This document shows, piece by piece, positions 4,908 to 23,007 of a stretch of 32,000 nt of DNA. Source of the DNA: Candidatus Saganbacteria bacterium (GTDB lineage: Bacteria > Margulisbacteria > WOR-1 > JAKLHX01); contig JAPLKZ010000007.1 of assembly GCA_026387835.1 (NCBI GenBank), positions 124,187-156,186 on the forward strand, given 5' to 3'. Position numbers and translations under genes: made by a program. The notes under the pieces were generated by a model. The model was not told the origin of the DNA. It worked only from the letters and a program-made list of their open reading frames with translations, and made no database searches. The first letter of the stretch is position 1; each line of letters opens with the position of its first letter.

Positions 4908-4974
4908 AAAATGGTGCGAGCGGCCCACACCGCTACCATTACTCTGATTATACATAACGCATTCACGGCTGCAT
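4908..4974 (-). promoter_or_regulatory. Inverted-repeat copy A: promoter (-35 ATGCAG, -10 TATAAT) plus leader hairpin, reading leftward
   Basis: 4908-4952 is a 45-bp perfect reverse complement of 13734-13778. -10 at 4947-4952 and -35 at 4969-4974, with a 16-nt spacer. Confidence 0.6.
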
Positions 4975-5783: not shown

Positions 5784-7559
5784 ATGTTCAAAAGCATCAG
5801 GCCCGTTATTTTTCTTGTCCTTACAGGGATCGTGCTGATCTCTTTCCTGCTCCTTTCTTTGATCGCCCTTCCTTCAATAAAGGACCTTGCTGTTTCCCAG
5901 ATAAAAGATCAGCTTTTGGTTCAAGCAAACATGAGCAGGGAAGATTTTTCAAATCTTCTGCTTTCAAATGCTGTAAAGGCAGTTTCGCAGGAAAAAGCAG
6001 TTGAAATCGCAAAAAATACGGGAAGCCGGGTCACTTTGATAAACAAAGACGGGGCGGTCCTCGCTGACTCGGACGAACCTCTTTCAAAGATCAAGGCGAT
6101 GGAAAATCACCTTACAAGACCGGAAGTAGTAGAAGCCGCGTCAGGAAAATACGGCTCTTCTATAAGGTACAGTGAAACAACAAGAAGGGATCAAATATAT
6201 CTTGCCTTGGCTTTAAGAGAAAAAAACGGCAGGATCCTCGGTTATCTGAGGATGTCCGATCCTTCTGAGTATATTCCCAAGATCACATTAAAATTCTACA
6301 GGTCACTGGCTCTTGCGCTTCTGTTAGCGTTGGCTGTCTGTGTTATAACAAGCTATTTTATCTCGATGATATTCACAAGGCCGTTAAGGCGGCTTGTAGA
6401 AACTTCCGAAAAGATATCCGAAGGCCGTTTTCCGGCTACGATAATGAAGAAATCCTGGTTTGAGATAGGCTCGCTCGAAAGAGCTGTCGAGAAGATGAGC
6501 TTAAAGCTTTCAGATCTTTTCAATAATATTAAAAAACAGCAGGGAAGCTCAGGCGCAGTCTTCTCGGGAATGAAGGAAGGCGTTGTGGTCCTTGATAAAG
6601 ACGGAAAGATACACACGGTCAATCCCGCAGTTGAAAAGATCTTCGGTCTGCACGGTGATGATCTGACAGGAAAAACGGTCCTTGAAGTGCTGCGGAACAA
6701 CGAGATAGCGGCTATAACGGATAGGTCCATTAAATTGGGAAAAGAGATAGAGGAGGAAATCGATATATTGACCCCTGTAGAAGCATCATTCGCGGTTTAT
6801 GCCGGGCCGATCAAAGATAAGGACGGGGATATCTTCGGCGGAATATGCGTTCTTCATGATATAACAAAGCTAAAAAAGCTTGAGAGGTACCGCTCTGAAT
6901 TTGTCGCGAATATCTCTCATGAACTAAAAACACCTTTAACGGCTATAAAGAACTATGCGGAGACGCTGCTCAACAGTGCTCCGGACGATAAGGAAAAGAG
7001 CAGGGAATTTATCCTGAAGATCGAAAAACACTCCGACAATCTTTCTTCATTGATTGACGACATTCTCGAGCTTTCAAGGCTTGAGTCCGGAGTGAAATCT
7101 GGCGAGCCGAAGAGCGTCAATATATCAGAGGTCATATCCAGATCGGTTGAATTGCTTTTGGAAAAGGCAAACAAAAAAGGCATTGTTATAAATGTTGAAT
7201 GTGACGGTCAGCTGTCCATTAGAAGTATCAAAGACCATCTTTTCAGGGCAGTTTCAAATCTTATAGACAATGCGGTGAATTATTCTGAAAAAGACAGCAT
7301 GGTAAGCATAAAATGTGTTAGAAAAGACAATAATATAGAGATCTCTGTTTCAGACAACGGCATCGGTATACCCAAAGAAAACATCGGCCGCATCTTTGAG
7401 AGGTTTTACCGTGTTGATCCGGGCAGATCAAGAGATTCCGGTGGAACAGGTCTTGGCCTTTCTATCGTCAAACATATAATGGAACTTCACGGCGGCAGGG
7501 TCTCTGTTCAAAGCGAGGCCGGAAAAGGCTCGACATTCACGCTTATATTCCCTTTGTAA
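5784..7559 (+). CDS. phoR: Sensor histidine kinase, PhoR-like (two TM segments, HAMP, PAS, HisKA and HATPase)
   Basis: H-box FVANISHELKTPLT, N-box LIDNAVNYS, and G-boxes DNGIGIP and GGTGLGLSIV. Confidence 0.85.
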   Translation: MFKSIRPVIFLVLTGIVLISFLLLSLIALPSIKDLAVSQIKDQLLVQANMSREDFSNLLLSNAVKAVSQEKAVEIAKNTGSRVTLINKDGAVLADSDEPLSKIKAMENHLTRPEVVEAASGKYGSSIRYSETTRRDQIYLALALREKNGRILGYLRMSDPSEYIPKITLKFYRSLALALLLALAVCVITSYFISMIFTRPLRRLVETSEKISEGRFPATIMKKSWFEIGSLERAVEKMSLKLSDLFNNIKKQQGSSGAVFSGMKEGVVVLDKDGKIHTVNPAVEKIFGLHGDDLTGKTVLEVLRNNEIAAITDRSIKLGKEIEEEIDILTPVEASFAVYAGPIKDKDGDIFGGICVLHDITKLKKLERYRSEFVANISHELKTPLTAIKNYAETLLNSAPDDKEKSREFILKIEKHSDNLSSLIDDILELSRLESGVKSGEPKSVNISEVISRSVELLLEKANKKGIVINVECDGQLSIRSIKDHLFRAVSNLIDNAVNYSEKDSMVSIKCVRKDNNIEISVSDNGIGIPKENIGRIFERFYRVDPGRSRDSGGTGLGLSIVKHIMELHGGRVSVQSEAGKGSTFTLIFPL

Positions 7560-7574
7560 ATATTTTACTCCCAG

Positions 7575-13581: not shown

Positions 13582-13710
13582 GCAGGCGATTTTTGCGGAA
13601 GGCCCTCCAGAGGCGGGTAAAGGTTTGGGGAGGGAGTCCTTCGCTTTGCTCAGGATAAACTCCAACCGCCCCCAAGATAGGAAGGCTACAGCCTACCCAG
13701 ATCTTTCTTC

Positions 13711-13778
13711 TTGCAGCCGTGAATAGTGTTAGGTATAATCAGAGTAATGGTAGCGGTGTGGGCCGCTCGCACCATTTT
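13711..13778 (+). promoter_or_regulatory. Inverted-repeat copy B: tRNA-Ala promoter (TTGCAG-N17-TATAAT) plus leader hairpin
   Basis: -35 at 13711-13716 and -10 at 13734-13739. Hairpin AATGGTaGCGG...CCGCtcgcACCATT. 13734-13778 is a perfect inverted match of 4908-4952. Confidence 0.65.
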
Positions 13779-13785
13779 CATTAGT

Positions 13786-13858
13786 GGGGGCATAGTTCAG
13801 CTGGTAGAACGTCTGCTTTGCAAGCAGAAGGTCCGCGGTTCGAGTCCGCGTGCCTCCA
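13786..13858 (+). tRNA. tRNA-Ala (anticodon UGC)
   Basis: Manual cloverleaf: acceptor stem GGGGGCA/TGCCTCC with the G3:U70 Ala identity pair, anticodon loop TTTGCAA, T arm CGCGG-TTCGAGT-CCGCG. No CCA is encoded. Confidence 0.9.
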
Positions 13859-14563
13859 TTTTAGTTTCTTTGCGAACTCCCGCACAAGCGTTTTCTGAAA
13901 TATTTTTCGGCGAAGGTTTTCTTCTGCGGCATTTTTTTGGGTGGGGGCAAAAAAATGCCGCAGGAACAGTTTCAGGGGTTTGATTTTCGGCGCTGTTATC
14001 ATGATATTTCAATATTACTTCGATGTTCTCCTTCGAATAAATTATCTTTTCGATGTGCCGTTTCATAATAATTCGTCTTTCAGTCATGTCCATATTATCT
14101 GCCGGCCCAGTTAAGGTCTCAAGTATCTGCCGGACCTTTTCGGAGGTGAACTGCAATGGAAAGGGCCCCGGTTCAAGTCCGCTTGCCATAGGTTTAGGCG
14201 AATTATTGAGCGTGAAGATCAAACTGTCGAGATGTTGATTGTTTTTGGCTATATTATCAAGATAATCTATGACAAGCCTGTCCAGACGATCAACGCTGAC
14301 CTGCCTGATATCACAAAAAGACAGGTCCCTTTTATTAACGCTTGTGCAACGATAATAAAAATATCTGACTCTCCTTGTATCTCTCTTTTTATTTGTGAAG
14401 ACTTCGCTCATAGTAGATCCGCAGCCTTTACAATGAAGTAATCCCGGAAATAAAGCACAGTGAACGACTCTGCCGTATATTCTCTGTTTGTGATGTTTCT
14501 GCGCCTCTTCAAACATTTCGGGAGACACAACTGGTTCGTGCTGTCCTTGATAGATATTTCCTC
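13859..14563 (-). pseudogene. Truncated large serine recombinase (C-terminal half only); direct repeat copy B
   Basis: The translation aligns residue by residue with the 2121-3635 protein, from GNIYQG..SPEMFEEAQKHHKQRIYGRVVHCALFPGLLHCKGCGSTM onward. The catalytic N-terminal half is absent. The 355-aa ORF in the track is a chimera that extends into the antisense of the TA genes. Confidence 0.85.
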
Positions 14564-14619
14564 TATTGCTCAGGGCGAGCTTCAAAAAAGGCGCTGTTTT
14601 ATGATATAATTCAACCACT

Positions 14620-14850
14620 ATGAAAACAAAACAGGCAAAACAAAAAACGAAACCCGTATATGTGAATGGATTGTCCTTGAAAAGGCCCGCGGTACTGATC
14701 GACGCCAGGGAGTACGAAGGGATGAAGGAAACCCTTGACATATTGATGGAAGACCCCGGTATCTCCAAGGAGATCAGAATAGCCGAAAAAGAACTTAAAA
14801 CGGGTAAAACCGTTTCCTGGGAAAAACTGAAGAATGAACTCAAAGTATGA
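14620..14850 (+). CDS. Type II antitoxin, Phd/YefM-like
   Basis: 76-aa protein with ...VLIDAREYEGMKETLDIL... typical of the Phd/YefM N-domain. It overlaps the downstream toxin gene. TGATATAAT lies 9 nt upstream of the ATG. Confidence 0.65.
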   Translation: MKTKQAKQKTKPVYVNGLSLKRPAVLIDAREYEGMKETLDILMEDPGISKEIRIAEKELKTGKTVSWEKLKNELKV

Positions 14851-15094
14851 ACTTGAGTTTTCAAGCCAGGCCGCTAAATTCCTCAAGAAACTAAAGAACA
14901 AAGAGCTTTTACAGAACATATTGTCAGCGCTGGATATTATACGAAAAGATCCTCTTTCAGGTAAGTTTTTGCAGGGAGATCTAAGAGACTATCATTCTTA
15001 CAGGGTAGGAACGTACAGGGTCATTTACAGGCCGGTTCACGATAAAATGCTTATTTTCATCCTGCGCATCTCTCACAGAAAAGAAAGCTATTGA
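14834..15094 (+). CDS. Type II toxin, RelE/ParE family
   Basis: 86 aa with the C-terminal signature YRVGTYRVIYRPVHDKMLIFILRISHRKESY. Overlaps the antitoxin by 17 nt. Confidence 0.75.
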   Translation: MNSKYELEFSSQAAKFLKKLKNKELLQNILSALDIIRKDPLSGKFLQGDLRDYHSYRVGTYRVIYRPVHDKMLIFILRISHRKESY

Positions 15095-15115
15095 TCATAA
15101 ATTATTGGGCTTTCT

Positions 15116-15160
15116 ATGAAAAATAAATCGGCATTAGTTCTTTCCGGCGGCTTCGTCAAA
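15116..15160 (+). pseudogene. N-terminal fragment of a patatin-like phospholipase gene
   Basis: ATGAAAAATAAATCGGCATTAGTTCTTTCCGGCGGCTTCGTCAAAG (MKNKSALVLSGGFVK) is homologous to the start of the intact gene at 16309 (MNKLALVLSGGFVK). It then runs into repeat sequence. Confidence 0.7.
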
Positions 15161-15203
15161 GCTTGTCCCGAGCGAAGTCGAGGGAGCCGAGGGAGCGCCG
15201 CGC
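15149..15203 (+). repeat. Left copy of the island-flanking direct repeat (GGCTTCGTCAAAGCTTGTCCCGAGCGAAGTCGAGGG..GCGCCGCGC)
   Basis: Matches 21780-21825 apart from one substitution and a 9-bp internal duplication (AGCCGAGGG). Confidence 0.75.
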
Positions 15204-15210
15204 GCGGGGC

Positions 15211-15238
15211 ACGCAGTCAGCAGTTAGCAGTCCGCAGA
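15211..15238 (+). repeat. Tandem heptads, four units (ACGCAGT CAGCAGT TAGCAGT CCGCAGA)
   Basis: Read directly from the sequence. Related arrays occur at 16252-16286, 17292-17325 and 20712-20760. Confidence 0.8.
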
Positions 15239-15246
15239 TCGGGCCG

Positions 15247-15284
15247 TTGACAAAAGAATTGTTTATAGTATTATATGACTATAA
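15247..15284 (+). promoter_or_regulatory. Promoter TTGACA-N16-TATTAT with an overlapping operator-like inverted repeat TTATAGT-N8-ACTATAA
   Basis: -35 at 15247-15252 and -10 at 15269-15274. Inverted repeat at 15263-15269 and 15278-15284. Upstream of the wHTH-nucleotidyltransferase gene. Confidence 0.6.
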
Positions 15285-15302
15285 CCATAGTAAGGAGTGA
15301 CA

Positions 15303-15851
15303 ATGTTAAACTTAAGGTCCGGCATCAAGAGCAAAGCGCTGAATTATTTCTTTCTGAACGAAGACAAAAGCATATACATAAATGAGCTTGCGCGCCTGAT
15401 CGGCGCTGACCCAATGAACCTTTACAGGTCACTGATAAAGCTTGAGGAGGAAGGACTTTTAAAAAGCGAATTCAGGGGCAAGGAGCGGTATTTTTCGTCT
15501 AACAAAAAGAATCCGTTATACAAAAACTACAAGGAGATATTCCTCAAGACCCATGGGTTTGAAGCGATGCTCAAGGAAGCATTAGAGAAAGTCAAAGGAC
15601 TGGAAGAAGCCATTATCTACGGATCATACGTGGCAGGCGGTTTTGACAGTTACAGCGATATTGATATTATGGCCGTGGGAAGTCATTCCGCAATAGAACT
15701 CAACAGGGCACTTTCTGTTCTTCAGAAAGAGACAGGAAGAGAGCTCAATGCGGTAAGTTATGGCAGGGCTGACTATGAAAAGCGCAAAAAAAAGAAAGAC
15801 CCCTTCATTTGCGGAGTCCTTAAGAATAAAAAGATAAAGATAATATGTTGA
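15303..15851 (+). CDS. Winged-HTH plus minimal nucleotidyltransferase (MNT-type antitoxin-like) protein
   Basis: NTase motif GSYVAGGFDSYSDIDIMAVG and an N-terminal wHTH-like region (INELARLIGADPMNLYRSLIKLEEEGLL). The ATG at 15303 is preferred over the GTG at 15297 because of the spacing to the AAGGAG RBS. Confidence 0.7.
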   Translation: MLNLRSGIKSKALNYFFLNEDKSIYINELARLIGADPMNLYRSLIKLEEEGLLKSEFRGKERYFSSNKKNPLYKNYKEIFLKTHGFEAMLKEALEKVKGLEEAIIYGSYVAGGFDSYSDIDIMAVGSHSAIELNRALSVLQKETGRELNAVSYGRADYEKRKKKKDPFICGVLKNKKIKIIC

Positions 15852-16249
15852 AATTCGAGGCAAAACACTTTAAGATATTCAACTTTACGCCTGAACAGGT
15901 AGAGGCGAACATGAAGAATGCCGAAAAGACGCTTGAAATAGCAGGGAAAGACAGGATAAGTGAGGTCATCTTCGACTATTCTTACAAGGCAATAATCAAA
16001 GCGGGGATAGCTCTTCTGAGCAAAAATAATTGCAAAGTCAAAAGCGGTTCCGGACATCACATCAAGGTCATAGAAGCACTGGCAAAAATACTGGATGATA
16101 AAACGATAGGGCAGGACGCGGATGTTATGAGGGGAAAAAGGAACCTGGACTTCTACTGCGGCGGTATCGAGGTCTCGGAAAAGGAAGCTGCCGAATACCT
16201 GGCCTTTGCGAAAAAGATAGTACTTGCGGCCAGAAAGATCATTGGTTAA
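15845..16249 (+). CDS. HEPN-domain protein (putative toxin partner of the MNT protein)
   Basis: 134-aa all-helical protein with the R(x)KRNxxxY-type motif (MRGKRNLDFY). 7-nt overlap with the NTase gene, as in HEPN/MNT operons. Confidence 0.55.
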   Translation: MLKFEAKHFKIFNFTPEQVEANMKNAEKTLEIAGKDRISEVIFDYSYKAIIKAGIALLSKNNCKVKSGSGHHIKVIEALAKILDDKTIGQDADVMRGKRNLDFYCGGIEVSEKEAAEYLAFAKKIVLAARKIIG

Positions 16250-16251
16250 AA

Positions 16252-16286
16252 CCGCAGTACGCAGTACGCAGTTGGCAGTACGCAGT
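16252..16286 (+). repeat. Tandem heptads, five units (CCGCAGT ACGCAGT ACGCAGT TGGCAGT ACGCAGT)
   Basis: Read directly from the sequence. Begins 3 nt after the HEPN stop codon and lies upstream of the patatin gene. Confidence 0.85.
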
Positions 16287-16308
16287 CCGTTCAAGCAGAA
16301 TACAAAAA

Positions 16309-17292
16309 ATGAATAAACTCGCATTAGTCTTATCCGGCGGCTTTGTGAAAGGTGCCGCTCATATAAGTATTGCCGAAGAAATGTATAAAAGGGGCTATAA
16401 GCCCGATATCTTCGTTGGCACTTCAATCGGCGCAATATTTTCCGTGCTTCTCGGCCTTTATGACGATCCTAAGACAGTCAAAGAAATATCTCTGAAGTTC
16501 GTTAAAAAGCATATATGGCCGCAGCTTTTATCCTTTGACCTGTTTTCTAAGGCAGGGCTGATCGATTCCAAAGAAACCGTAAAGCTGATCGCAAAAGAGG
16601 CCGGGTTAACTGGCAAGACGTTTAATGACCTCAAAAAACCGGTTTATATCACGGCAACGGACCTCAATTCCGGAAAGCAGATAGTGTTCAGTCCCTCGAC
16701 TCCTCGCTATTGCTCGTCGCTCGGGACAAGCAAAGAAAGCAATATGCTGATATCAGAAGCGCTTGAAGCGTCAATATCATTTCCTGTTATATTCAAACCA
16801 AAGAAAGTAAAGGTTGGCAATAAAGTTATGGCGCTTGCCGACGGCGGGATCAGGGAAAACTGTCCAATATCGGTCGCGGCGAGGATAGCGGGGGTTAAAA
16901 GGATAATCGCCTGTGATCTTGGTTATTGTGGGCAGGTAAAGGGCGATTTTAACAAAAAGAACATTATGGACGTTTTTATGCAATGCCTGGACCTGACGAC
17001 TTCTTTTTCGCAGATTAATAGATATATCAATGACGATATCTTCTTGAAGAAAAAAATAGCAGTCAGGATCATCAATCCAGGGATATTTGATGTTCATCCT
17101 TTTGATTTTAAGGAGATCCCTGCGATAATGGACAGAGCCGCGAAAACGGCGGGGTTTATATTCTCAAGATTTAAGAGGCCCGATGATTTCTTTAGATACT
17201 GGCAGAGGGATCCATTCGATAGGGAATACATGACGATGGAGCATATAGGGAAAAAGGCGGTAAACGCTTTTCAAATAGTAGATTTCTCTTAA
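16309..17292 (+). CDS. Patatin-like phospholipase
   Basis: Oxyanion-hole region LVLSGGFVKGAAH, nucleophile elbow GTSIGA (GxSxG) and catalytic Asp motif ADGGIREN. Contains an in-frame GC-rich repeat-family insertion at 16693-16731. Confidence 0.8.
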   Translation: MNKLALVLSGGFVKGAAHISIAEEMYKRGYKPDIFVGTSIGAIFSVLLGLYDDPKTVKEISLKFVKKHIWPQLLSFDLFSKAGLIDSKETVKLIAKEAGLTGKTFNDLKKPVYITATDLNSGKQIVFSPSTPRYCSSLGTSKESNMLISEALEASISFPVIFKPKKVKVGNKVMALADGGIRENCPISVAARIAGVKRIIACDLGYCGQVKGDFNKKNIMDVFMQCLDLTTSFSQINRYINDDIFLKKKIAVRIINPGIFDVHPFDFKEIPAIMDRAAKTAGFIFSRFKRPDDFFRYWQRDPFDREYMTMEHIGKKAVNAFQIVDFS

Positions 17293-17326
17293 CGCAGTCA
17301 GCACGCCTGCCAACGCCTGAACGCTG

Positions 17327-17905
17327 TTAAATGAACCCGAACCTGCCTTTTGGCTTTTCTTTTTCATGCAGCATCTCTCTCAACGCGTCAAAAACGATCT
17401 TGAATTGGCCGTCGTATTTCTTTTCCATTTCTTCTATCTTGTTCCTAAGTTCTTTATATCCAGATAACATTGTCCTTAATTTTGTAAATGTCCTCATGAC
17501 CTGGATATTTACTAATACAGCCCTTTTGCTGTTAAGGACACTTGACAGCATGGCTATGCCTTGTTCGGTAAAAGCGTACATCAAGTATTTTGAGTGTTTG
17601 CCTCTTTCTAAGGCGCCAAAATGGCACCTTAGAGCTTTTTGTTCGTCAATTGAAAGCCTGATCATGAAATCATCCGGAAAACGGAAGATATTTCTTTTAA
17701 CGGCTCTTTTTAAGTATTTTGTTTCAACACCATAAAGGTCCGCAAGGTCCTTATCGAGCATCACTTTTTGCCCCCTTATCAACAGGATCATGTTCTCAAT
17801 GATCTCCGCAGGAACCAAAGACTTACTGCCGGATTTTTCGACACTTCGACTCGCCGGCGCTCGCTCAGTGCAAGCACCCCTGATGGATTTGTCATCCTTT
17901 TTCAT
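17327..17905 (-). CDS. ORF6N-domain DNA-binding protein (KilA-N/Rha-like superfamily)
   Basis: IRGQKVMLDKDLADLYGVETKYLKRAVKRNIFRFPDDFMIRL...YAFTEQGIAMLSSVLNSKRAVLVNIQVMRTF matches the ORF6N signature. AAAGGAG RBS. The N-terminal region includes a repeat-derived segment (ACTERAPASRSVE). Confidence 0.75.
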   Translation of the reverse strand: MKKDDKSIRGACTERAPASRSVEKSGSKSLVPAEIIENMILLIRGQKVMLDKDLADLYGVETKYLKRAVKRNIFRFPDDFMIRLSIDEQKALRCHFGALERGKHSKYLMYAFTEQGIAMLSSVLNSKRAVLVNIQVMRTFTKLRTMLSGYKELRNKIEEMEKKYDGQFKIVFDALREMLHEKEKPKGRFGFI

Positions 17906-18134
17906 GATAAAGTCTCCTTTGGAGGGTCATTGGGAACCTCCCCCAAGGATGCTTACAGCAATTTATCCGCCACAACGGAAACGCAATCAGCCTGCCGACC
18001 TGTCCGCCGAAGCTGAAGCGAAGGTGGAAGTCCCGATCTAATCGGGACGAACGCGCTTGCCCTGAGCGTAGCCGAAGGGTTTCAGGTGGTGGATTTTGGG
18101 TAAATTGAGAATACTTCTTTTGCGAGTGCTATAA

Positions 18135-19751
18135 TTGGAGTCAAATACGACAAAAACCACGGAAGAACAGTTCAAATTATTATTAAAAGAGCCGGAAGGG
18201 GCGCATTTGGAATGTAAACCTTCGAGCATTAGTTCCCAGTCACTTTCTGATTATTGTGCCGCAATTGCTAATGAGGGAGGCGGCAAGCTGATATTAGGTG
18301 TTACCGATAAAGAAAGAGAGATAATAGGAACGAAATCATTTGCAGGAACATTACATGAATTACCAATTAAGCTTCTACAAGCTCTTTCTATAAGAGTAGA
18401 TGCCGAAGAGCTCAAAATAGACACAAAAAGAGTTGTTATATTTCATATTCCAAGTCATCCGGTCGGTATTTTAATAAAATCAAATGGCAGATATCTAATG
18501 CGGGCCGGCAGTTCGCTGGTTGAAATGACATCAGATAAGATAAGAGAAATCGTGATGGAAACCATAAAAGACTTTTCCGCTCAGATTGTGCCGGGATTAG
18601 CTCTTTCTGATATAGATGAAGAATCCGTCAATAGATTTAGAGCGCTTTGGGCGAAAAAACAAGGCAAACTGGAATATTTGAGCCATGACACGGAGAAAAT
18701 ATTGAGATCAATAGAGATTTTCACAGATAAAGAAATTAATTATGCCGGGTTGATTCTGTTCGGGAAAAAAGAAAAAATAGCTGAATTGTTGCCGGGTGCG
18801 GAAATAATATACGAATGGCGTCAGGAGAAGAAAATCAGCCATGATTTTCGTTCAAGTTGGAGAGATCCGTTCTTTAAGATATACGATGATATTTGGGCTA
18901 TCATCAACGCGAGGAATTCAAGGACACCATTCCAGGAAGGATTTGTCCAAAGAGAGATATCCGCGTTCACGGAAGCTCCAATACGTGAAGCAGTATTAAA
19001 TGCCGTAGCTCACAGGGATTATAAGACAGAAACCGCGTCAATTATTATCAAAGCTTCACCTGACGAGTTCACGATAGAAAGTCCCGGAGGTTTTTTGCCG
19101 GGGATAACCCCGGAAAATATCATCGAAAAATCTGAATGGAGGAACAGGCGTATTGCCGAGATACTGGAAAAAGCGGGTTTGATTGAAAGATCAGGGCAGG
19201 GAATGGAGGTTATATTTGGAACTACCATACGAGAGGGGAAAGGGCTGCCCAGCTTTAAAGGGAGCGATCAATATTCCGTAAAACTTAGTATCCCTGCTAA
19301 AGTTAAAGATGAACAGTTTATCAAGTTTCTTGAAAAAGTTGCGAACGAGAAACAAATATCATTAACTTTCGAAGAAATATATGAATTGGAAAATATTAGG
19401 GAAAACAAAAAAGTAAAATCCCTAAAGTTCAAGGATAAATTTCTTGAAATGGGGATAATCGAGAAAATTGGAAGAACAAGCTCAACCCAATATATCCTTT
19501 CTCATAAATGGTATGAGTACCAGGGCAAAGCAGGCATTTACACGCGCATTGCCGGTCTTTCTCGTGATAGAAATAAGCAGTTGATAGTTGAACATTTGAA
19601 AAAGAATAAAAAGGGTGCCAGGAATACTGATTTCAGAGACGCGCTTGGATTTGATCAGAAAACGATCAATAATTTTCTTCAAGAGCTGAAAGATGATGGA
19701 AAAGTCCGTTTTGAGGGCAAGAAAAGAACAGGGAAATGGCTAATTAAATAG
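18135..19751 (+). CDS. AlbA_2 (Schlafen-like) plus HATPase_c_4 'RecG-like' putative DNA-binding/ATP-binding protein
   Basis: N-terminal E..LECK...ANEGGGKLILGV (AlbA_2), central NAVAHRDY...ESPGG...RN..I (HATPase_c_4) and a C-terminal wHTH-like region. The start is uncertain: the TTG at 18135 overlaps a TATAAT at 18130-18135. Confidence 0.65.
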   Translation: MESNTTKTTEEQFKLLLKEPEGAHLECKPSSISSQSLSDYCAAIANEGGGKLILGVTDKEREIIGTKSFAGTLHELPIKLLQALSIRVDAEELKIDTKRVVIFHIPSHPVGILIKSNGRYLMRAGSSLVEMTSDKIREIVMETIKDFSAQIVPGLALSDIDEESVNRFRALWAKKQGKLEYLSHDTEKILRSIEIFTDKEINYAGLILFGKKEKIAELLPGAEIIYEWRQEKKISHDFRSSWRDPFFKIYDDIWAIINARNSRTPFQEGFVQREISAFTEAPIREAVLNAVAHRDYKTETASIIIKASPDEFTIESPGGFLPGITPENIIEKSEWRNRRIAEILEKAGLIERSGQGMEVIFGTTIREGKGLPSFKGSDQYSVKLSIPAKVKDEQFIKFLEKVANEKQISLTFEEIYELENIRENKKVKSLKFKDKFLEMGIIEKIGRTSSTQYILSHKWYEYQGKAGIYTRIAGLSRDRNKQLIVEHLKKNKKGARNTDFRDALGFDQKTINNFLQELKDDGKVRFEGKKRTGKWLIK

Positions 19752-19760
19752 CCGATGAAT

Positions 19761-19844
19761 TAGTTAATACTAGTTAATGTTGAAGAACAGGGTCAAATAA
19801 ATGCCTCGCAATTGAGTCAAAAAATGGATGGAGAACTAGTTAAT
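19761..19844 (+). repeat. Three copies of TAGTTAAT in an AT-rich intergenic region
   Basis: Copies at 19761-19768, 19771-19778 and 19837-19844. The third is embedded in the palindrome AACTAGTT. Confidence 0.6.
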
Positions 19845-19997
19845 AAATGTTAAACGTTAGAACAAAAAAATGAATTCAAGGCATTCTCAATAAATAAGAG
19901 AGAATCCATTTAATAATTAACTGTTTCGGAAGTAATTAAATCAAATGAAGCCCGCATTATTCACAAAAGCTTTATGATGTGAATAAAAGGAGGAAAT

Positions 19998-20372
19998 ATG
20001 AATGAAATGTATGAATTTGATGTATTTTGTGAAGAAGATGGAACACGTAAGACAATTAAGGCTAAGGGGAACGACAGCCTTTATAAGTTTGCTGAAAAGA
20101 TCGTCAAGGAATTTGACTTTGAACTGGACCACTGCTTCGGATTTTACAGCGATTTCGAGAAATTGAGCAATTCATCCAAGGCCTATGAGCTTTTCGTTGA
20201 CGCGGAAGCGGAAACATCTTGCACGGGTTCCAAAAGCGTAAAAAAGACAAAGATCAGTCAGGCGTTTCAGCAAGTCGGAGAAATGATGTTGTTCCTGTTT
20301 GATTACGGGGATAATAACAGGTTTGCGGTAAAACTGATGCGGATTCCGACGAAGTGGGTGAAGACGGGATGA
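19998..20372 (+). CDS. pRiA4b ORF-3-like (PRiA4_ORF3 family) domain protein
   Basis: SLYKFAEKIVKEFDFELDHCFGFY and LFLFDYGDNNRFAVKL resemble the family pattern (..dLH..iq.afgW.d.Hl..F ... Y.YDFGD.W.H.i). AAAGGAGG RBS. Confidence 0.4.
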   Translation: MNEMYEFDVFCEEDGTRKTIKAKGNDSLYKFAEKIVKEFDFELDHCFGFYSDFEKLSNSSKAYELFVDAEAETSCTGSKSVKKTKISQAFQQVGEMMLFLFDYGDNNRFAVKLMRIPTKWVKTG

Positions 20373-20417
20373 CGGCGTTTGATGTGGTGGATTTTTCATG
20401 AAAGGAAGGGCTGAATA

Positions 20418-20600
20418 ATGGAAACAAAAAGGGATCTGTCAACGGTGAAGAGTGTCACGGTCTGCCTTAAGGAAATAGATGAAGACGGACAGAAAACAGG
20501 AAAGCGTATGTGTATGGAAATGACAGGGGCCCAATATGAAATATTCGAAAAGCATGTAAAAACAGTGCCTTCGAATGAAAAGAAAGAAGTGGTCGAATAG
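20418..20600 (+). CDS. Hypothetical small protein (60 aa)
   Basis: ORF with a weak purine-rich RBS (GAAAGGAAGGG), following the PRiA4-like gene. No recognisable motif. Confidence 0.3.
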   Translation: METKRDLSTVKSVTVCLKEIDEDGQKTGKRMCMEMTGAQYEIFEKHVKTVPSNEKKEVVE

Positions 20601-20637
20601 TATCACATCAAATGATCAAAACCTGCACGTCGGCAGC

Positions 20638-20706
20638 GAATACATGACGATGGAGCATATAGGGAAGAAGAGGACTAACGCTTTTCAAATAGTGGATTTC
20701 TCTTAA
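20638..20706 (+). pseudogene. C-terminal fragment of a patatin-like phospholipase gene
   Basis: GAATACATGACGATGGAGCATATAGGGAAGAAG..GCTTTTCAAATAGTGGATTTCTCTTAA is homologous to the 3' end of the intact gene (17224-17292), including the stop codon. Confidence 0.75.
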
Positions 20707-20711
20707 GGCAG

Positions 20712-20760
20712 CACGCAGTTAGCAGTACGTACTGCGAGCTGCGAACGACGAACTGCGGTC
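20712..20760. repeat. GCAGT-type heptads merging into a perfect 14-bp palindrome GCAGTACGTACTGC
   Basis: Palindrome at 20722-20735, flanked by CGCAGTTA and GAGCTGCG, with further ACTGCG-type units. Immediately follows the patatin C-terminal fragment. Confidence 0.7.
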
Positions 20761-20873
20761 TTTGATGGCGGGCTGATTGCTGTAATATGGAGATAGAACG
20801 CTTCGGTCAGCTCTTACGAGGCGGATCGCTGTGAGAGGTGTTGAAAAATCCTACAGTTGAGGAGGAAATAATA

Positions 20874-21713
20874 ATGAAAGAAGATAAAATCGCGGTATTT
20901 GAAGGAAAGGGAATTCGCAGGATCTGGGATAGTAAAGCGGAAAAATGGTATTTTTCTGTTGTGGACATCGTCGCGGTTTTAACTGACAGCCAAAATCCGG
21001 CCGTATATTGGAGAGTTCTAAAAAAGCGTTTACTGGATGAAGGCGCAAATGAAACCGTTACAAAATGTAACGGTTTGAAAATGCCTGCCGCTGACGGGAA
21101 AATGAGAATAACGGATATGGCTGACACCGAAACGATGCTTCGGCTTATTCAGTCTGTTCCCAGCCCCAAGGCGGAACCGATAAAGCTGTGGCTGGCAAAA
21201 GTGGGGTATGAACGGTTGCAGGATATGAGCGATCCCGCGCGCTCACTTGACCGCGCCCGCGAATACTGGCAGCAACTCGGTAGAAGTGAAAAGTGGATCC
21301 AACAGCGGATGATGGGGCAGGAAACCAGGAATAAACTCACTGACTACTGGAAAGACCATGAAATAACCAAAGAAGAGGAATATGCTGTTCTCACAAACAT
21401 CATTCACCGGGAATGGAGCGGTGTTTCAGTGAAAAAACATAAGGGTATCAAAGGTCTTAAAACGCAGAATCTCCGTGATCATATGAGCGAAGCAGAACTG
21501 ATTTTTACCGCACTTGCTGAACTCTCCACGAGACAGATTGCCGAAAGCGTCAATGCCACAGGAATGCCCGAGAACGCGAAAGCAGGGGAAAAAGGCGGAA
21601 AAATTGCAAGAAAAGCCCGGTTGGAATTGGAATCAAAAACGGGCAAAAGCGTCATCACATCCGAGAACTATCTTCCGCCGGCGAAGAAACAAAGGCAAAT
21701 AAAACAAAAATAG
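20874..21713 (+). CDS. Bro-N domain protein (antirepressor / DinD-like)
   Basis: N-terminal IAVFEGKGIRRIWDSKAEKWYFSVVDIVAVLT (Bro-N) and a C-terminal region (...LWLAKVGYERLQ...NLRDHMSEAELIF...) typical of the Bro-N/DinD-like family. The ATG at 20874 has a GAGGAGG RBS. Confidence 0.7.
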   Translation: MKEDKIAVFEGKGIRRIWDSKAEKWYFSVVDIVAVLTDSQNPAVYWRVLKKRLLDEGANETVTKCNGLKMPAADGKMRITDMADTETMLRLIQSVPSPKAEPIKLWLAKVGYERLQDMSDPARSLDRAREYWQQLGRSEKWIQQRMMGQETRNKLTDYWKDHEITKEEEYAVLTNIIHREWSGVSVKKHKGIKGLKTQNLRDHMSEAELIFTALAELSTRQIAESVNATGMPENAKAGEKGGKIARKARLELESKTGKSVITSENYLPPAKKQRQIKQK

Positions 21714-21779
21714 GAAGCTAGGTGTACGAGAAAATCGTACAACTGCTTGCGTCTCACCACTCGCGTAGCAATGCGGGCA

Positions 21780-21825
21780 GGCTTCGTCAAAGCTTGTCCC
21801 GAGCGAAGCCGAGGGGGCGCCGCGC
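21780..21825 (+). repeat. Right copy of the island-flanking direct repeat
   Basis: GGCTTCGTCAAAGCTTGTCCCGAGCGAAGCCGAGGGGGCGCCGCGC matches 15149-15203. Confidence 0.75.
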
Positions 21826-21852: not shown

Positions 21853-23007
21853 ATGAAAACAAAGATCCCGAAAAACGTTGTCTGGCTCGGTCTTGTCAGT
21901 TTCTTTAACGATGTCGCCTCGGAGATGATCTATCCTCTTGTCCCTATATTCCTCACAAGCGTCCTGGGCGCGCCGGTGGCAATAGTCGGTCTGATAGAGG
22001 GGATAGCCGAATCAACCGCGAGCTTATTAAAAGTCGTCTCAGGATGGCTTTCCGACAAATTCCGTTCAAGAAAACCCTTTACAGTTGCAGGATATTTATT
22101 CTCGGCATTTTCAAAAATACTTTTAAGCTTTGCTTTCAGCTGGCCTCTGGTCCTGTTTGCCAGATTTGTCGACCGTTTCGGAAAAGGGGTGCGGACTTCA
22201 GCGCGGGATGCTTTGATCGCCGAAAGCTCGGATGCCACGGTCAGAGGAAGATCGTTCGGTTTTCACCGCGGCCTGGATACTCTGGGAGCGGTGATAGGCC
22301 CGCTCCTCGCTCTGATCGCAATCCGATTTTTGAATGATAATCTGCGTCTCATATTCTTTCTTGCATTCATCCCGGCTTTTATCGGGATCCTCCTGCTTGT
22401 CATCTTTGTAAAAGAAAAAAGAAAAGAAACCGGTCCTTTCGAAGCGTTCCATTTTAAATGGCAGGATCTCGACCCTTCTTTTAAAATATATTTGCTGATC
22501 AGTTTTATTTTTGCTTTAGGCAACAGTTCGGATGCCTTTCTGATCTTGCGGGCGCAAAATTTAGGCCTGTCACTCACTTTGATAGTGCTTACATACGTAC
22601 TTTTCAATTTCACATATGCAATGTTTTCAATGCCGGCAGGAATAGTGTCTGATAAGATTGGACCAAGAAAAGTTCTTCTAAGCGGTTTTTTGCTTTTTGC
22701 CTTTGTTTATCTTTTATTTGGCGCAATACATTCAAGTGTATTTCTTTGGGTTCTTTTCCCTCTTTACGGGATATACATGGCACTTACCGAAGGGGTAGGG
22801 AAAGCCTACATTTCAAATCTGGTCCCGAACGAGAAGACGGGCACGGCCTTTGGCATCTATCAGACAACGGTCGGCCTCTGCACGTTCTTTGCTTCTCTTA
22901 TTGCCGGACTTCTCTGGACATATGTCGGTGTCAGTGTGCCTTTCATCTTTGGTAGTGTAGCGGCGGCAATATCTGCGATCCTGTTTGTTATTCTGGAGAA
23001 GAAATAA
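21853..23007 (+). CDS. MFS transporter
   Basis: 384 aa with about 12 predicted TM helices and an MFS loop motif (DRFGKG-type, VDRFGKGVRTSARDA). Confidence 0.75.
   Translation: MKTKIPKNVVWLGLVSFFNDVASEMIYPLVPIFLTSVLGAPVAIVGLIEGIAESTASLLKVVSGWLSDKFRSRKPFTVAGYLFSAFSKILLSFAFSWPLVLFARFVDRFGKGVRTSARDALIAESSDATVRGRSFGFHRGLDTLGAVIGPLLALIAIRFLNDNLRLIFFLAFIPAFIGILLLVIFVKEKRKETGPFEAFHFKWQDLDPSFKIYLLISFIFALGNSSDAFLILRAQNLGLSLTLIVLTYVLFNFTYAMFSMPAGIVSDKIGPRKVLLSGFLLFAFVYLLFGAIHSSVFLWVLFPLYGIYMALTEGVGKAYISNLVPNEKTGTAFGIYQTTVGLCTFFASLIAGLLWTYVGVSVPFIFGSVAAAISAILFVILEKK

Follow-up and report, generated by a model that had tools for sequence, protein, structure and literature searches.

We analysed a stretch of 32,000 nucleotides (the window, G000:C10:124187-156186) from a draft genome of 1.5 Mb, 13 contigs and 95% completeness, whose nearest relatives are entered in NCBI records as Candidatus Margulisiibacteriota. 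The region between 14.6 and 21.8 kb of this window is best explained as the variable arm of a lineage-wide hotspot for defence and toxin-antitoxin (TA) genes, which is anchored on a conserved patatin-like phospholipase gene. An intact copy of the gene (16309-17292, plus strand, 327 aa) lies within this island, and further pieces of patatin ends lie at the junctions between unrelated modules. The account that we favour with moderate confidence is that the island is a nested one, built by insertions that were probably homology-driven, in which the displaced termini of patatin genes were left as scars. Hereafter G-numbers denote genomes (G000 being the source genome), L-numbers denote loci of relatives, and C5, C6, C9 and C12 are contigs of the source genome. 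Island proteins were assigned to families by profile searches with Pfam, PADLOC and PHROGs. The patatin subfamily has 45 members in our protein collection, for which about a dozen distinct contexts were inspected, and class-wide pattern scans covered 65 genomes (the source genome and 64 others). The nearest patatin in the collection is 84% identical, and the comparison reaches relatives above strain level.

A previous reading of the window made from its letters alone (the sequence-only reading) had reported one fragment of each end of a patatin gene. Both fragments exist, but the real count is four C-terminal ends and two N-terminal starts. The N-terminal fragment (N', 15116-15160, plus strand) consists of an ATG of its own at 15116 and 14 further codons (MKNKSALVLSGGFVK), and is cut at a junction with a repetitive extragenic palindrome (REP)-like element. 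Over 40 nt, its positions 15122-15161 share 80% identity with 16312-16351, where the intact gene begins, and 36 of its 45 bases match the start of the second patatin copy of the genome, which is of the C5/L030 type. The largest C-terminal fragment (C'3, 20638-20706, plus strand) holds the last 22-23 codons and the stop. From a GAATAC onward it agrees with the 3' end of the window's intact gene in 62 of 69 bases (90%), and of the seven mismatches six are confined to one 12-nt patch, while 12 other patatin alleles reach at most 77%; the slightly longer segment 20630-20711 aligns with 17216-17297 at 87-88% (blastn E 2e-21). As judged by their sequences, two shorter segments are further patatin 3'-end pieces, which are new beyond the earlier reading. 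One of these (C'1, 18080-18103, plus strand) has seven codons, FQVVDFG-stop, and this 'G-type' end differs from the 'S-type' end of the intact gene, FQIVDFS-stop; it agrees with the end of the C5 paralogue in 24 of 25 bases, including an exact 17-mer. The other (C'2, 20372-20401, plus strand) has nine codons, TAFDVVDFS-stop, and matches the motif core in 15 of 17 positions with GCG before it and the S-type stop after it; taken alone in tblastn it gives an E of 0.06-0.075. A six-frame scan for the C-terminal patatin motif across the 32-kb window and about 200 kb of other loci returned four matches in the window, all of them in the island, on the plus strand and with a stop within two codons, against a background of three in about 200 kb. 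Chance similarity of the fragments is thus excluded by the alignments and the scan. N' and C'1 resemble the C5/L030-type allele rather than the intact gene, and may represent both termini of a patatin that resided here earlier.

These pieces are embedded in a nested set of direct repeats (DR), rather than in the single bounding pair that had been described at first. The outer repeat, DR-A, is borne out by alignment at its reported length of 46-55 nt. Its left copy (15149-15203, plus strand) comprises the last 12-13 nt of N', namely the GFVK codons, together with a REP-like element, and its right copy (DR2, 21780-21825, plus strand) is joined to the right half of a second REP family (..GTAGCAATGCGGGCAGGCTT), which runs from 21760 on. 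The two copies align over 27 exact bases, a 9-nt indel and then 18 of 19 bases. The core of DR-A, GCTTGYCCCGAGCGAAGTCGAGGG, is a REP-like element found scattered through the genome in about 6-10 copies. The explanation that DR-A merely represents chance copies of this element was rejected, as the composite 26-mer with the GFVK codons, GGCTTCGTCAAAGCTTGYCCYGAGCG, is confined to these two sites when all 65 genomes are scanned. We also considered whether GGCTTCGTCAAAG is part of a REP family, given that DR2 folds as a hairpin with the end of the second REP family; a patatin origin of the segment appears more likely because the 7-nt linker CGTCAAA is found only here. The second REP family (..CCCGCCTGCAACGCTTTGCGTAGCAATGCGGGCAGGC..) is itself present at C9:117795, C10:9185, C12:245995, C10:248868 and C12:224234, with the right half only at 21763-21782 of the window beside DR2. 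The inner repeat, DR-B, consists of the last 25 codons of the intact patatin gene and 5 nt (17216-17297, plus strand) and a right copy (20630-20711, plus strand) that holds C'3. Because the end of the intact gene itself matches C'3 far better than any other allele does, DR-B looks like a duplication made in place. DR-A spans 6.6 kb, and DR-B spans 3.4 kb within it. N' and the start of the intact gene bracket a 1.2-kb module of two genes, encoding a nucleotidyltransferase with a winged helix-turn-helix (wHTH) and a HEPN protein (MNT/HEPN), whereas the gene end, C'1, C'2 and C'3 bracket in turn the ORF6N gene, the AlbA_2 and PRiA4 genes, and a small open reading frame (ORF). It could be objected that the metagenome assembly fused different strain versions of the island at patatin ends that they had in common, and the draft state of the 13-contig genome and the presence of repeats at every junction are in keeping with such a chimera. 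However, the repeat copies are diverged, the longest exact runs being 27 nt for DR-A and about 29 nt for DR-B, which is below the usual assembly k-mers, and comparable structures are found in independent assemblies from other studies; we therefore consider an assembly artefact very improbable.

Every junction of the island carries either GC-rich REP-like palindromes or arrays of GCAGT heptads. A cluster of REP-like palindromes (17985-18079, plus strand), ending in ...GCCGAAGGG, abuts C'1, and has GTCCCGATC..CGGGACGAA in common with the REP that follows patatin in L048. Heptad arrays lie at 15213-15233 (plus strand), where a promoter-like TTGACA-16-TATTAT follows (15247-15274), and between the HEPN and patatin genes (five units, 16254-16288, plus strand), where a variant array occupies the same place in L046. 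A shorter, imperfect array after C'3 (20708-20766, plus strand) combines heptads with an inverted copy to give an imperfect hairpin. When single-strand fold energies were compared with those of shuffled controls this hairpin did no better than the shuffles (z of -0.9), versus a z of -3.4 for a related copy on C12. Arrays of at least three GCAGTNN units are present in five places of the source genome, a control pattern in none, and strict arrays are encountered in only 3 of the 64 other genomes of the class. Two of the five arrays lie in the island, and two flank a 0.7-kb cassette of the Phd/RelE type on C12 (C12:237809-238501; L024 ~5810-6500), which is situated between an atpZ-like gene and atpB. 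The same site is empty in four genomes of the family (G001, G005, G006 and G007), which marks the C12 cassette as a discrete insertion. Its left end, with heptads and a TTGACA promoter (C12:237807-237846), is 82.5% identical to the region 15218-15255 of the window in blastn, and the heptad hairpin at its right end (C12:238450-238501) is 86.5% identical over 52 nt to 20715-20766. With both ends matching at 82-87%, the segment from 15.2 to 20.8 kb is framed like a cassette that has demonstrably moved. A GCAGT heptad array is also seen at G000:C10:118665-118685, which is 5.5 kb upstream of the window and directly before a gene start.

The REP-like palindromes also occur inside patatin genes. Several relatives carry them in-frame and GC-rich, both mid-gene and after codons 3-5, at L032 ~2230-2300 and ~1841-1864, L033/L034 ~7430-7560, L046 638-666 and, in L019 of G008, in the residues '..KKMPLRQAQGKVKMM..'; the patatins with in-frame REP measure 336-356 aa, as against 315-327. 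Mobility of REPs by a REP-associated tyrosine transposase (RAYT) was considered and rejected, no Y1 transposase being present in the source genome.

Inspection of the relatives supports the proposal, made in the sequence-only reading, of repeated insertion or replacement at a patatin-associated hotspot. The same anchor borders differing defence cargo in every relative examined, and what lies downstream of it is different in nearly every one of about 12 distinct loci. This cargo includes type I restriction-modification (R-M) genes with Fic (L032, L034, L046), DarT/Macro (L042), RE_AlwI with methyltransferases and HamA (L030), Vsr-MutH with a methylase and an OLD-type ATPase (L033), AAA_15 (L045) and Abi_C (L034). 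The source genome's own C5 copy, which is 83% identical in amino acids to the copy in the window, belongs to the type I R-M group as well and is followed by Fic-HsdM-HsdS. ORF6N is the commonest neighbour of this patatin, on either side of it. For each of ORF6N, PRiA4 and Bro-N there is some relative in which it directly follows patatin, and these positions fit a stacking of new blocks between patatin and older cargo.

The end fragments recur in these relatives too. In G008 we found, in order, a 32-codon N', a two-gene module on the minus strand, an intact patatin, a REP, a seven-codon C' and a PRiA4 gene. The two-gene module, located between the 32-codon N' and the intact patatin (L019, G008:C7, 4393-5354, minus strand), encodes a protein of 179 aa (phrog_13263), for which no Pfam match was obtained, and a wHTH-like one of 142 aa (phrog_18520), and is probably a TA-type pair. 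In G003 an 11-codon N' and a REP are seen, with the intact patatin 110 nt on, and in G007 a REP is followed by patatin codons 3-15 within another variable region. The order patatin, stop, REP and C' is seen in G008, L032, L046 and L048. In addition, L046 has the order MNT-HEPN-heptads-patatin, and in L048 a Bro-N-like ORF stands right after the patatin-REP-C' unit. The patatins of L032 and of L033/L034 are nearly identical (about 95% by eye) and differ by a 79-nt unit that comprises seven codons, a stop and a REP and is flanked by a repeated TTTC..GATTTC; here the gain or loss of a unit between repeats is seen directly. At L045 8937-8975 there is a hybrid patatin end, in which G-type codons (CAGGTGGTGGATTTC) are combined with the stop context of the S-type, and of the REP no more than the first 13 nt are present. 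Such an end looks like the outcome of gene conversion, or of a deletion, between two copies of the end. When the C' core was sought by pattern in the whole class, and patatin-bearing metagenome contigs were scanned, few new loci and no new fragments came to light.

The relatives also bear on an alternative origin of the fragments, namely a local tandem duplication of patatin paralogues followed by decay, in which all but one were cut down to their ends. The genome does retain two full paralogues, in the window and on C5, and the fragments derive from at least two allele types. However, such a history needs three or four independent deletions that each spared only a terminus, and leaves unexplained why unrelated cargo is bracketed, why the same pattern is seen in G003, G007, G008, L032 and L046, and why the 79-nt unit is present or absent between near-identical genes. 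We accordingly hold duplication and decay to be quite improbable.

The modules themselves are of several kinds, and the domain assignments made for them earlier hold in Pfam. The island opens with a promoter-like site found by a promoter scan (14581-14610) and a small pair of ORFs on the plus strand that overlap at 14834-14850 and have the family matches of a type II TA system. These are a Phd/YefM-like antitoxin (14620-14850; PF02604 4e-4, at 20.5 bits under the cut-off of 29.8) and a ParE toxin (14834-15094; PF05016 4.8e-11, 43.5 bits against a cut-off of 23). The MNT gene (15297-15851, plus strand; PF01909 5e-7, PADLOC PDC-M05A 1.8e-39) and the HEPN gene (15845-16249, plus strand; PF05168 3.5e-3, at 17.9 bits against a 22-bit cut-off, PADLOC PDC-M05B 3.3e-12) overlap by 7 nt and match both component models of the PADLOC candidate PDC-M05, and are thus a candidate TA-type pair. 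The patatin matches PF01734 over residues 6-190 (104.1 bits against a cut-off of 27.7, E 1.5e-29), and its predicted Ser-Asp dyad motifs and oxyanion loop are all present (GTSIG at 37-41, DGG at 178 and SGGFVKG at 9-15). Convergent with it is a gene for an ORF6N protein, that is a KilA-N-like DNA-binding protein of the anti-repressor type (17327-17905, minus strand; PF10543 6e-32, PADLOC PDC-S05 5e-55, phrog_4792 anti-repressor 2e-27). Further along lies a 538-aa AlbA_2/Schlafen-like protein with a HATPase_c_4 domain and a wHTH-like C-terminal tail (18135-19751, plus strand; PF04326 8.7e-13, PF13749 1.2e-12, phrog_12156 3.5e-45), which also gives weak matches to wHTH of the CasR/CARF type. The next gene encodes a PRiA4_ORF3-like protein of 124 aa (19998-20372, plus strand; PF07929 1.5e-6), the last codons of which run into a REP remnant (~20340-20371). 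It is 76% identical to the product of the gene directly after the patatin-REP-C' unit in G008, from which it differs at the C-terminus. A small ORF of 60 aa (20418-20600, plus strand), whose ribosome-binding site lies 17 nt after C'2, had no match in Pfam, PADLOC or PHROGs. The last gene of the island encodes a Bro-N/DinD-like protein (20838-21713, plus strand, with ATG 20874 as the likely start; PF02498 7e-8, PADLOC PDC-S13 6.9e-124, phrog_15286 5.5e-93).

We asked how far these genes could form one multi-gene defence system, in which MNT/HEPN would sense or regulate, patatin would be the membrane-attacking effector, and ORF6N and the downstream genes would cooperate. The recurrence of MNT-HEPN-heptads-patatin in L046/L047, the frequency of ORF6N beside patatin, and the match of this patatin to PADLOC phospholipase-effector models at 1e-13 are in keeping with such a system. 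Yet the MNT/HEPN pair of L046 is 49-51% identical to that of the window, and thus as distant as a copy from Omnitrophica (52%), while the patatins are 78% identical; and MNT/HEPN homologues occur in Omnitrophica, Paceibacterota, Acidobacteria and Elusimicrobiota with no patatin within 4 kb. Furthermore, other TA-type pairs fill the MNT/HEPN slot in G008 and L032, ORF6N switches side and orientation among loci, and the modules are separated by repeats and have promoter-like sites of their own in the promoter scan. The chance that all these genes work as a single system is therefore very small. A narrower three-gene system of MNT/HEPN and patatin was rejected on the contexts of the MNT homologues, and the new multi-gene combination that the sequence-only reading had kept in play is unlikely, given the homologues in other phyla that have no patatin nearby. 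Nor did a search of the 10 island proteins with PADLOC and Pfam detect a CD-NTase cyclase, as would be found in a cyclic-oligonucleotide-based anti-phage signalling system (CBASS) with a CapV-type patatin effector; of such models only those for the effector are matched, by the patatin. From its sequence the island is best read as a set of independent modules at one hotspot, comprising two TA pairs, a phospholipase effector and candidates in ORF6N, AlbA_2 and Bro-N.

The order of events and the recombination mechanism that we infer for the hotspot are as follows. The backbone would probably have been heptads, MNT/HEPN, heptads, patatin, the heptad hairpin and Bro-N. A 3.4-kb block with ORF6N, REPs, AlbA_2, PRiA4 and the small ORF, which would already have borne the older scars C'1 and C'2, would then have recombined into the last ~25 codons of patatin and duplicated them as DR-B. 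Finally, the whole 6.6-kb unit would have come to lie between two junctions of patatin GFVK codons and REP, that is DR-A, beside the 15-codon start of an older and different patatin allele. Most probably the termini of a resident patatin would have recombined with incoming DNA from related patatin islands, arriving either as a circle that enters by a single crossover, or as a linear piece with homology on one side and a join at REPs or microhomology on the other. Such a process would need no dedicated integrase, the patatin ORF would stay intact, the displaced terminus would remain as a scar, and REP palindromes would be frequent breakpoints. Homology-driven capture is favoured because a single crossover of a circle leaves bracketing direct repeats and one-sided anchoring with an illegitimate join can leave them, and also on account of the variable breakpoints, the unremarkable folds of the junctions and the lack of an integrase at the patatin loci, all of which are taken up below.

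A different class of mechanism deserves to be weighed against this, in which the patatin terminus and REP serve as the attachment site of a site-specific cassette platform, integron-like or tRNA-island-like, with the recombinase acting in trans; each cassette would bring the last patatin codons and the gene would be restored on insertion. Islands formed by tyrosine integrases at tRNA genes do leave direct repeats of the gene's 3' end, which counts in its favour, as do the recurrence of the junction ...GAAGG(A)GGG|TTT(C/G)AG in the window (at C'1), G008, L032, L046 and L048, the resemblance of the C' pieces to the gene end of their own genome, which suggests ongoing exchange, and the three large serine recombinases of the source genome, one of them 11 kb away. 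Large serine recombinases, however, leave no long direct repeats. No integrase was found in or beside the ~15 patatin loci examined. In the source genome the only PF00589 matches are two Xer-sized ORFs (295-298 aa), which are located on C5 and C6 at a great distance from the island, with neither an IntI-like recombinase nor a Y1 transposase. The breakpoints moreover vary, falling at codon 11, 15 or 32 on the 5' side and leaving 7, 9 or 23 codons on the 3' side. The target-end direct repeats of a tRNA-type integrative island are present, but no integrase lies between them, and the nearby recombinase is truncated and outside. Although the junctions carry REP palindromes, their single-stranded folds are no better than those of shuffled sequences (z -0.9 to +1), and with no IntI in the genome an integron-like attC structure finds no support. 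We regard a site-specific platform as unlikely. Similarly unlikely, in our estimate, is that the patatin termini and REPs, perhaps with the GCAGT heptads, are attachment sites of an undescribed integron-like system of cassette capture, which would be served by a novel recombinase or a host enzyme.

Several points weigh against homology-driven growth of the island as well. The evidence for gain and loss of blocks comes from relatives above strain level, and the source genome is a draft that looks metagenome-assembled. The near-identity, across five loci, of the REP|TTT(C/G)AG junction that precedes the short C' is also compatible with site-specific cutting or with one event in the distant past. 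Repeats of 24-45 nt are close to, or at, the minimum length that RecA-type recombination requires. Finally, conservation of the short C' pieces exceeds what is expected of neutral scars, and each of them resembles the gene end found in the same genome, as would be in line with site-specific exchange or with gene conversion that is still going on.

On its left the island adjoins a tRNA-Ala gene (13785-13859) and the C-terminal half of a large serine recombinase gene (13860-14562, minus strand), which starts at the last base of the tRNA and whose homology stops at 14562. This remnant is 92% identical over 782 nt to 2156-2937, where the gene is intact. The corresponding direct repeat of 92% identity (2156-2937 and 13782-14562) begins at the last bases of tRNA-Ile and tRNA-Ala. 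The promoter region of the tRNA-Ala (13712-13778) has an inverted copy at 4908-4973, and a REP-like piece, TTGCTCAGGGCGAGCTTC, also marks the breakpoint at which the truncated recombinase gives way to the promoter of Phd/ParE (14563-14600). Although the island had been described as lying downstream of tRNA-Ala, this link is incidental: a neighbouring serine-recombinase element accounts for both the tRNA and the truncated recombinase, and relatives have the order pst-phoU...patatin with no tRNA between. That order is alike in the window, L033 and L034 (with pstSCAB-phoU upstream in the latter two), while other patatin copies adjoin MutS, a methyltransferase or TauE-PPDK-DnaG, and the second copy of the source genome is on C5. 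On the right the island is followed by a gene for a major facilitator superfamily transporter (21853-23007, plus strand), with 81% amino acid identity to the copy in G007. A copy of the window's tRNA-Ala promoter and leader (13700-13778) was seen without a tRNA at L028 (G007:C16) 735-960. Next to it come, in this order, a REP, patatin codons 3-15, a GCAG-type array and a set of unrelated genes, which comprise a SWIM zinc finger, a sigma-70 region 4-like gene and a remnant of a gene of the AlbA_2/HATPase_c_4 type.

Many defence hotspots have neither integrase nor transposase, which leaves the entry of their cargo to be explained; this island hints at growth without an integrase of its own. Its junctions constitute a readable record, with the same scars in related genomes, and they turn the vague notion of recombination at flanking genes into a concrete and testable model, in which the ends of an anchor ORF capture cargo by a single crossover or through homology on one side. 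The patatin/ORF6N pair may further serve as a marker for defence islands in the small genomes of the uncultured Candidatus Margulisiibacteriota, and the AlbA_2/HATPase_c_4, PRiA4, Bro-N/PDC-S13 and patatin genes are supplied as candidate modules.

In defence hotspots generally, a conserved marker gene borders a slot whose cargo varies from genome to genome, and many of these slots are devoid of mobility genes. Hotspots with conserved bordering genes are known, among them the core defence hotspots (cDHS) of P. aeruginosa (PMC10250203) and the pan-genome hotspots of E. coli (PMC10121019), as is the embedding of defence cargo in operons. The present island shares with core defence hotspots the conserved marker bordering variable defence cargo and the lack of mobility genes, but its patatin anchor is itself a putative effector present at more than one genomic site, and pieces of the ends of the anchor ORF are repeated at the junctions, recording the order and manner of insertions. 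What is new is a patatin anchor with an ORF6N companion in a little-studied lineage, a hotspot hit at both ends of the anchor ORF, and nested scars of anchor termini that record the growth of the island. Defence genes embedded in type I R-M, BREX and DISARM operons have been found through 'guilt by embedding' in a study that gives no account of cargo insertion and no anchor-gene fragments at junctions (Payne et al., bioRxiv 10.1101/2024.01.29.577857). The patatins of relatives that stand beside type I R-M genes with Fic are reminiscent of these systems, whereas the window has no R-M, BREX or DISARM frame. We take PDC-M05, PDC-S05 and PDC-S13 to be families of the embedding study, although these names are not in the main text of the preprint.

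Integrons, and the clusters of attC sites lacking integron integrases (CALINs), stack small and often TA-type cassettes that carry no integrase, promoter-proximally, in one orientation and at a recurring site. The island resembles them in its stacked, small TA-type cassettes, each bounded by a recurring site, but no intI was found in the genome, the site is a coding piece with a REP and not an attC hairpin, the folds are not significant and the breakpoints vary. In the accretion of islands at tRNA or tmRNA genes, arrivals restore the 3' end of the target and push the old one downstream, giving rise to a series of direct repeats. Here, by contrast, a protein-coding target was hit at both ends, no integrase accompanies the blocks and the repeats are irregular in length. 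Homology-facilitated illegitimate recombination, in which one homologous anchor and an illegitimate join at a short GC-rich microhomology insert foreign DNA, was reportedly described in transformable bacteria by de Vries and Wackernagel in 2002; patatin would be the homologous anchor of such a process, which for this organism is a proposal only. Lastly, Rickettsia palindromic elements, said to have been described by Ogata et al. in 2000, are reportedly GC-rich palindromes lying in-frame within protein-coding genes. The in-frame REPs inside the patatins of relatives are comparable to these, but they belong to another sequence family and another lineage, and the REPs here also mark the junctions of rearrangements.

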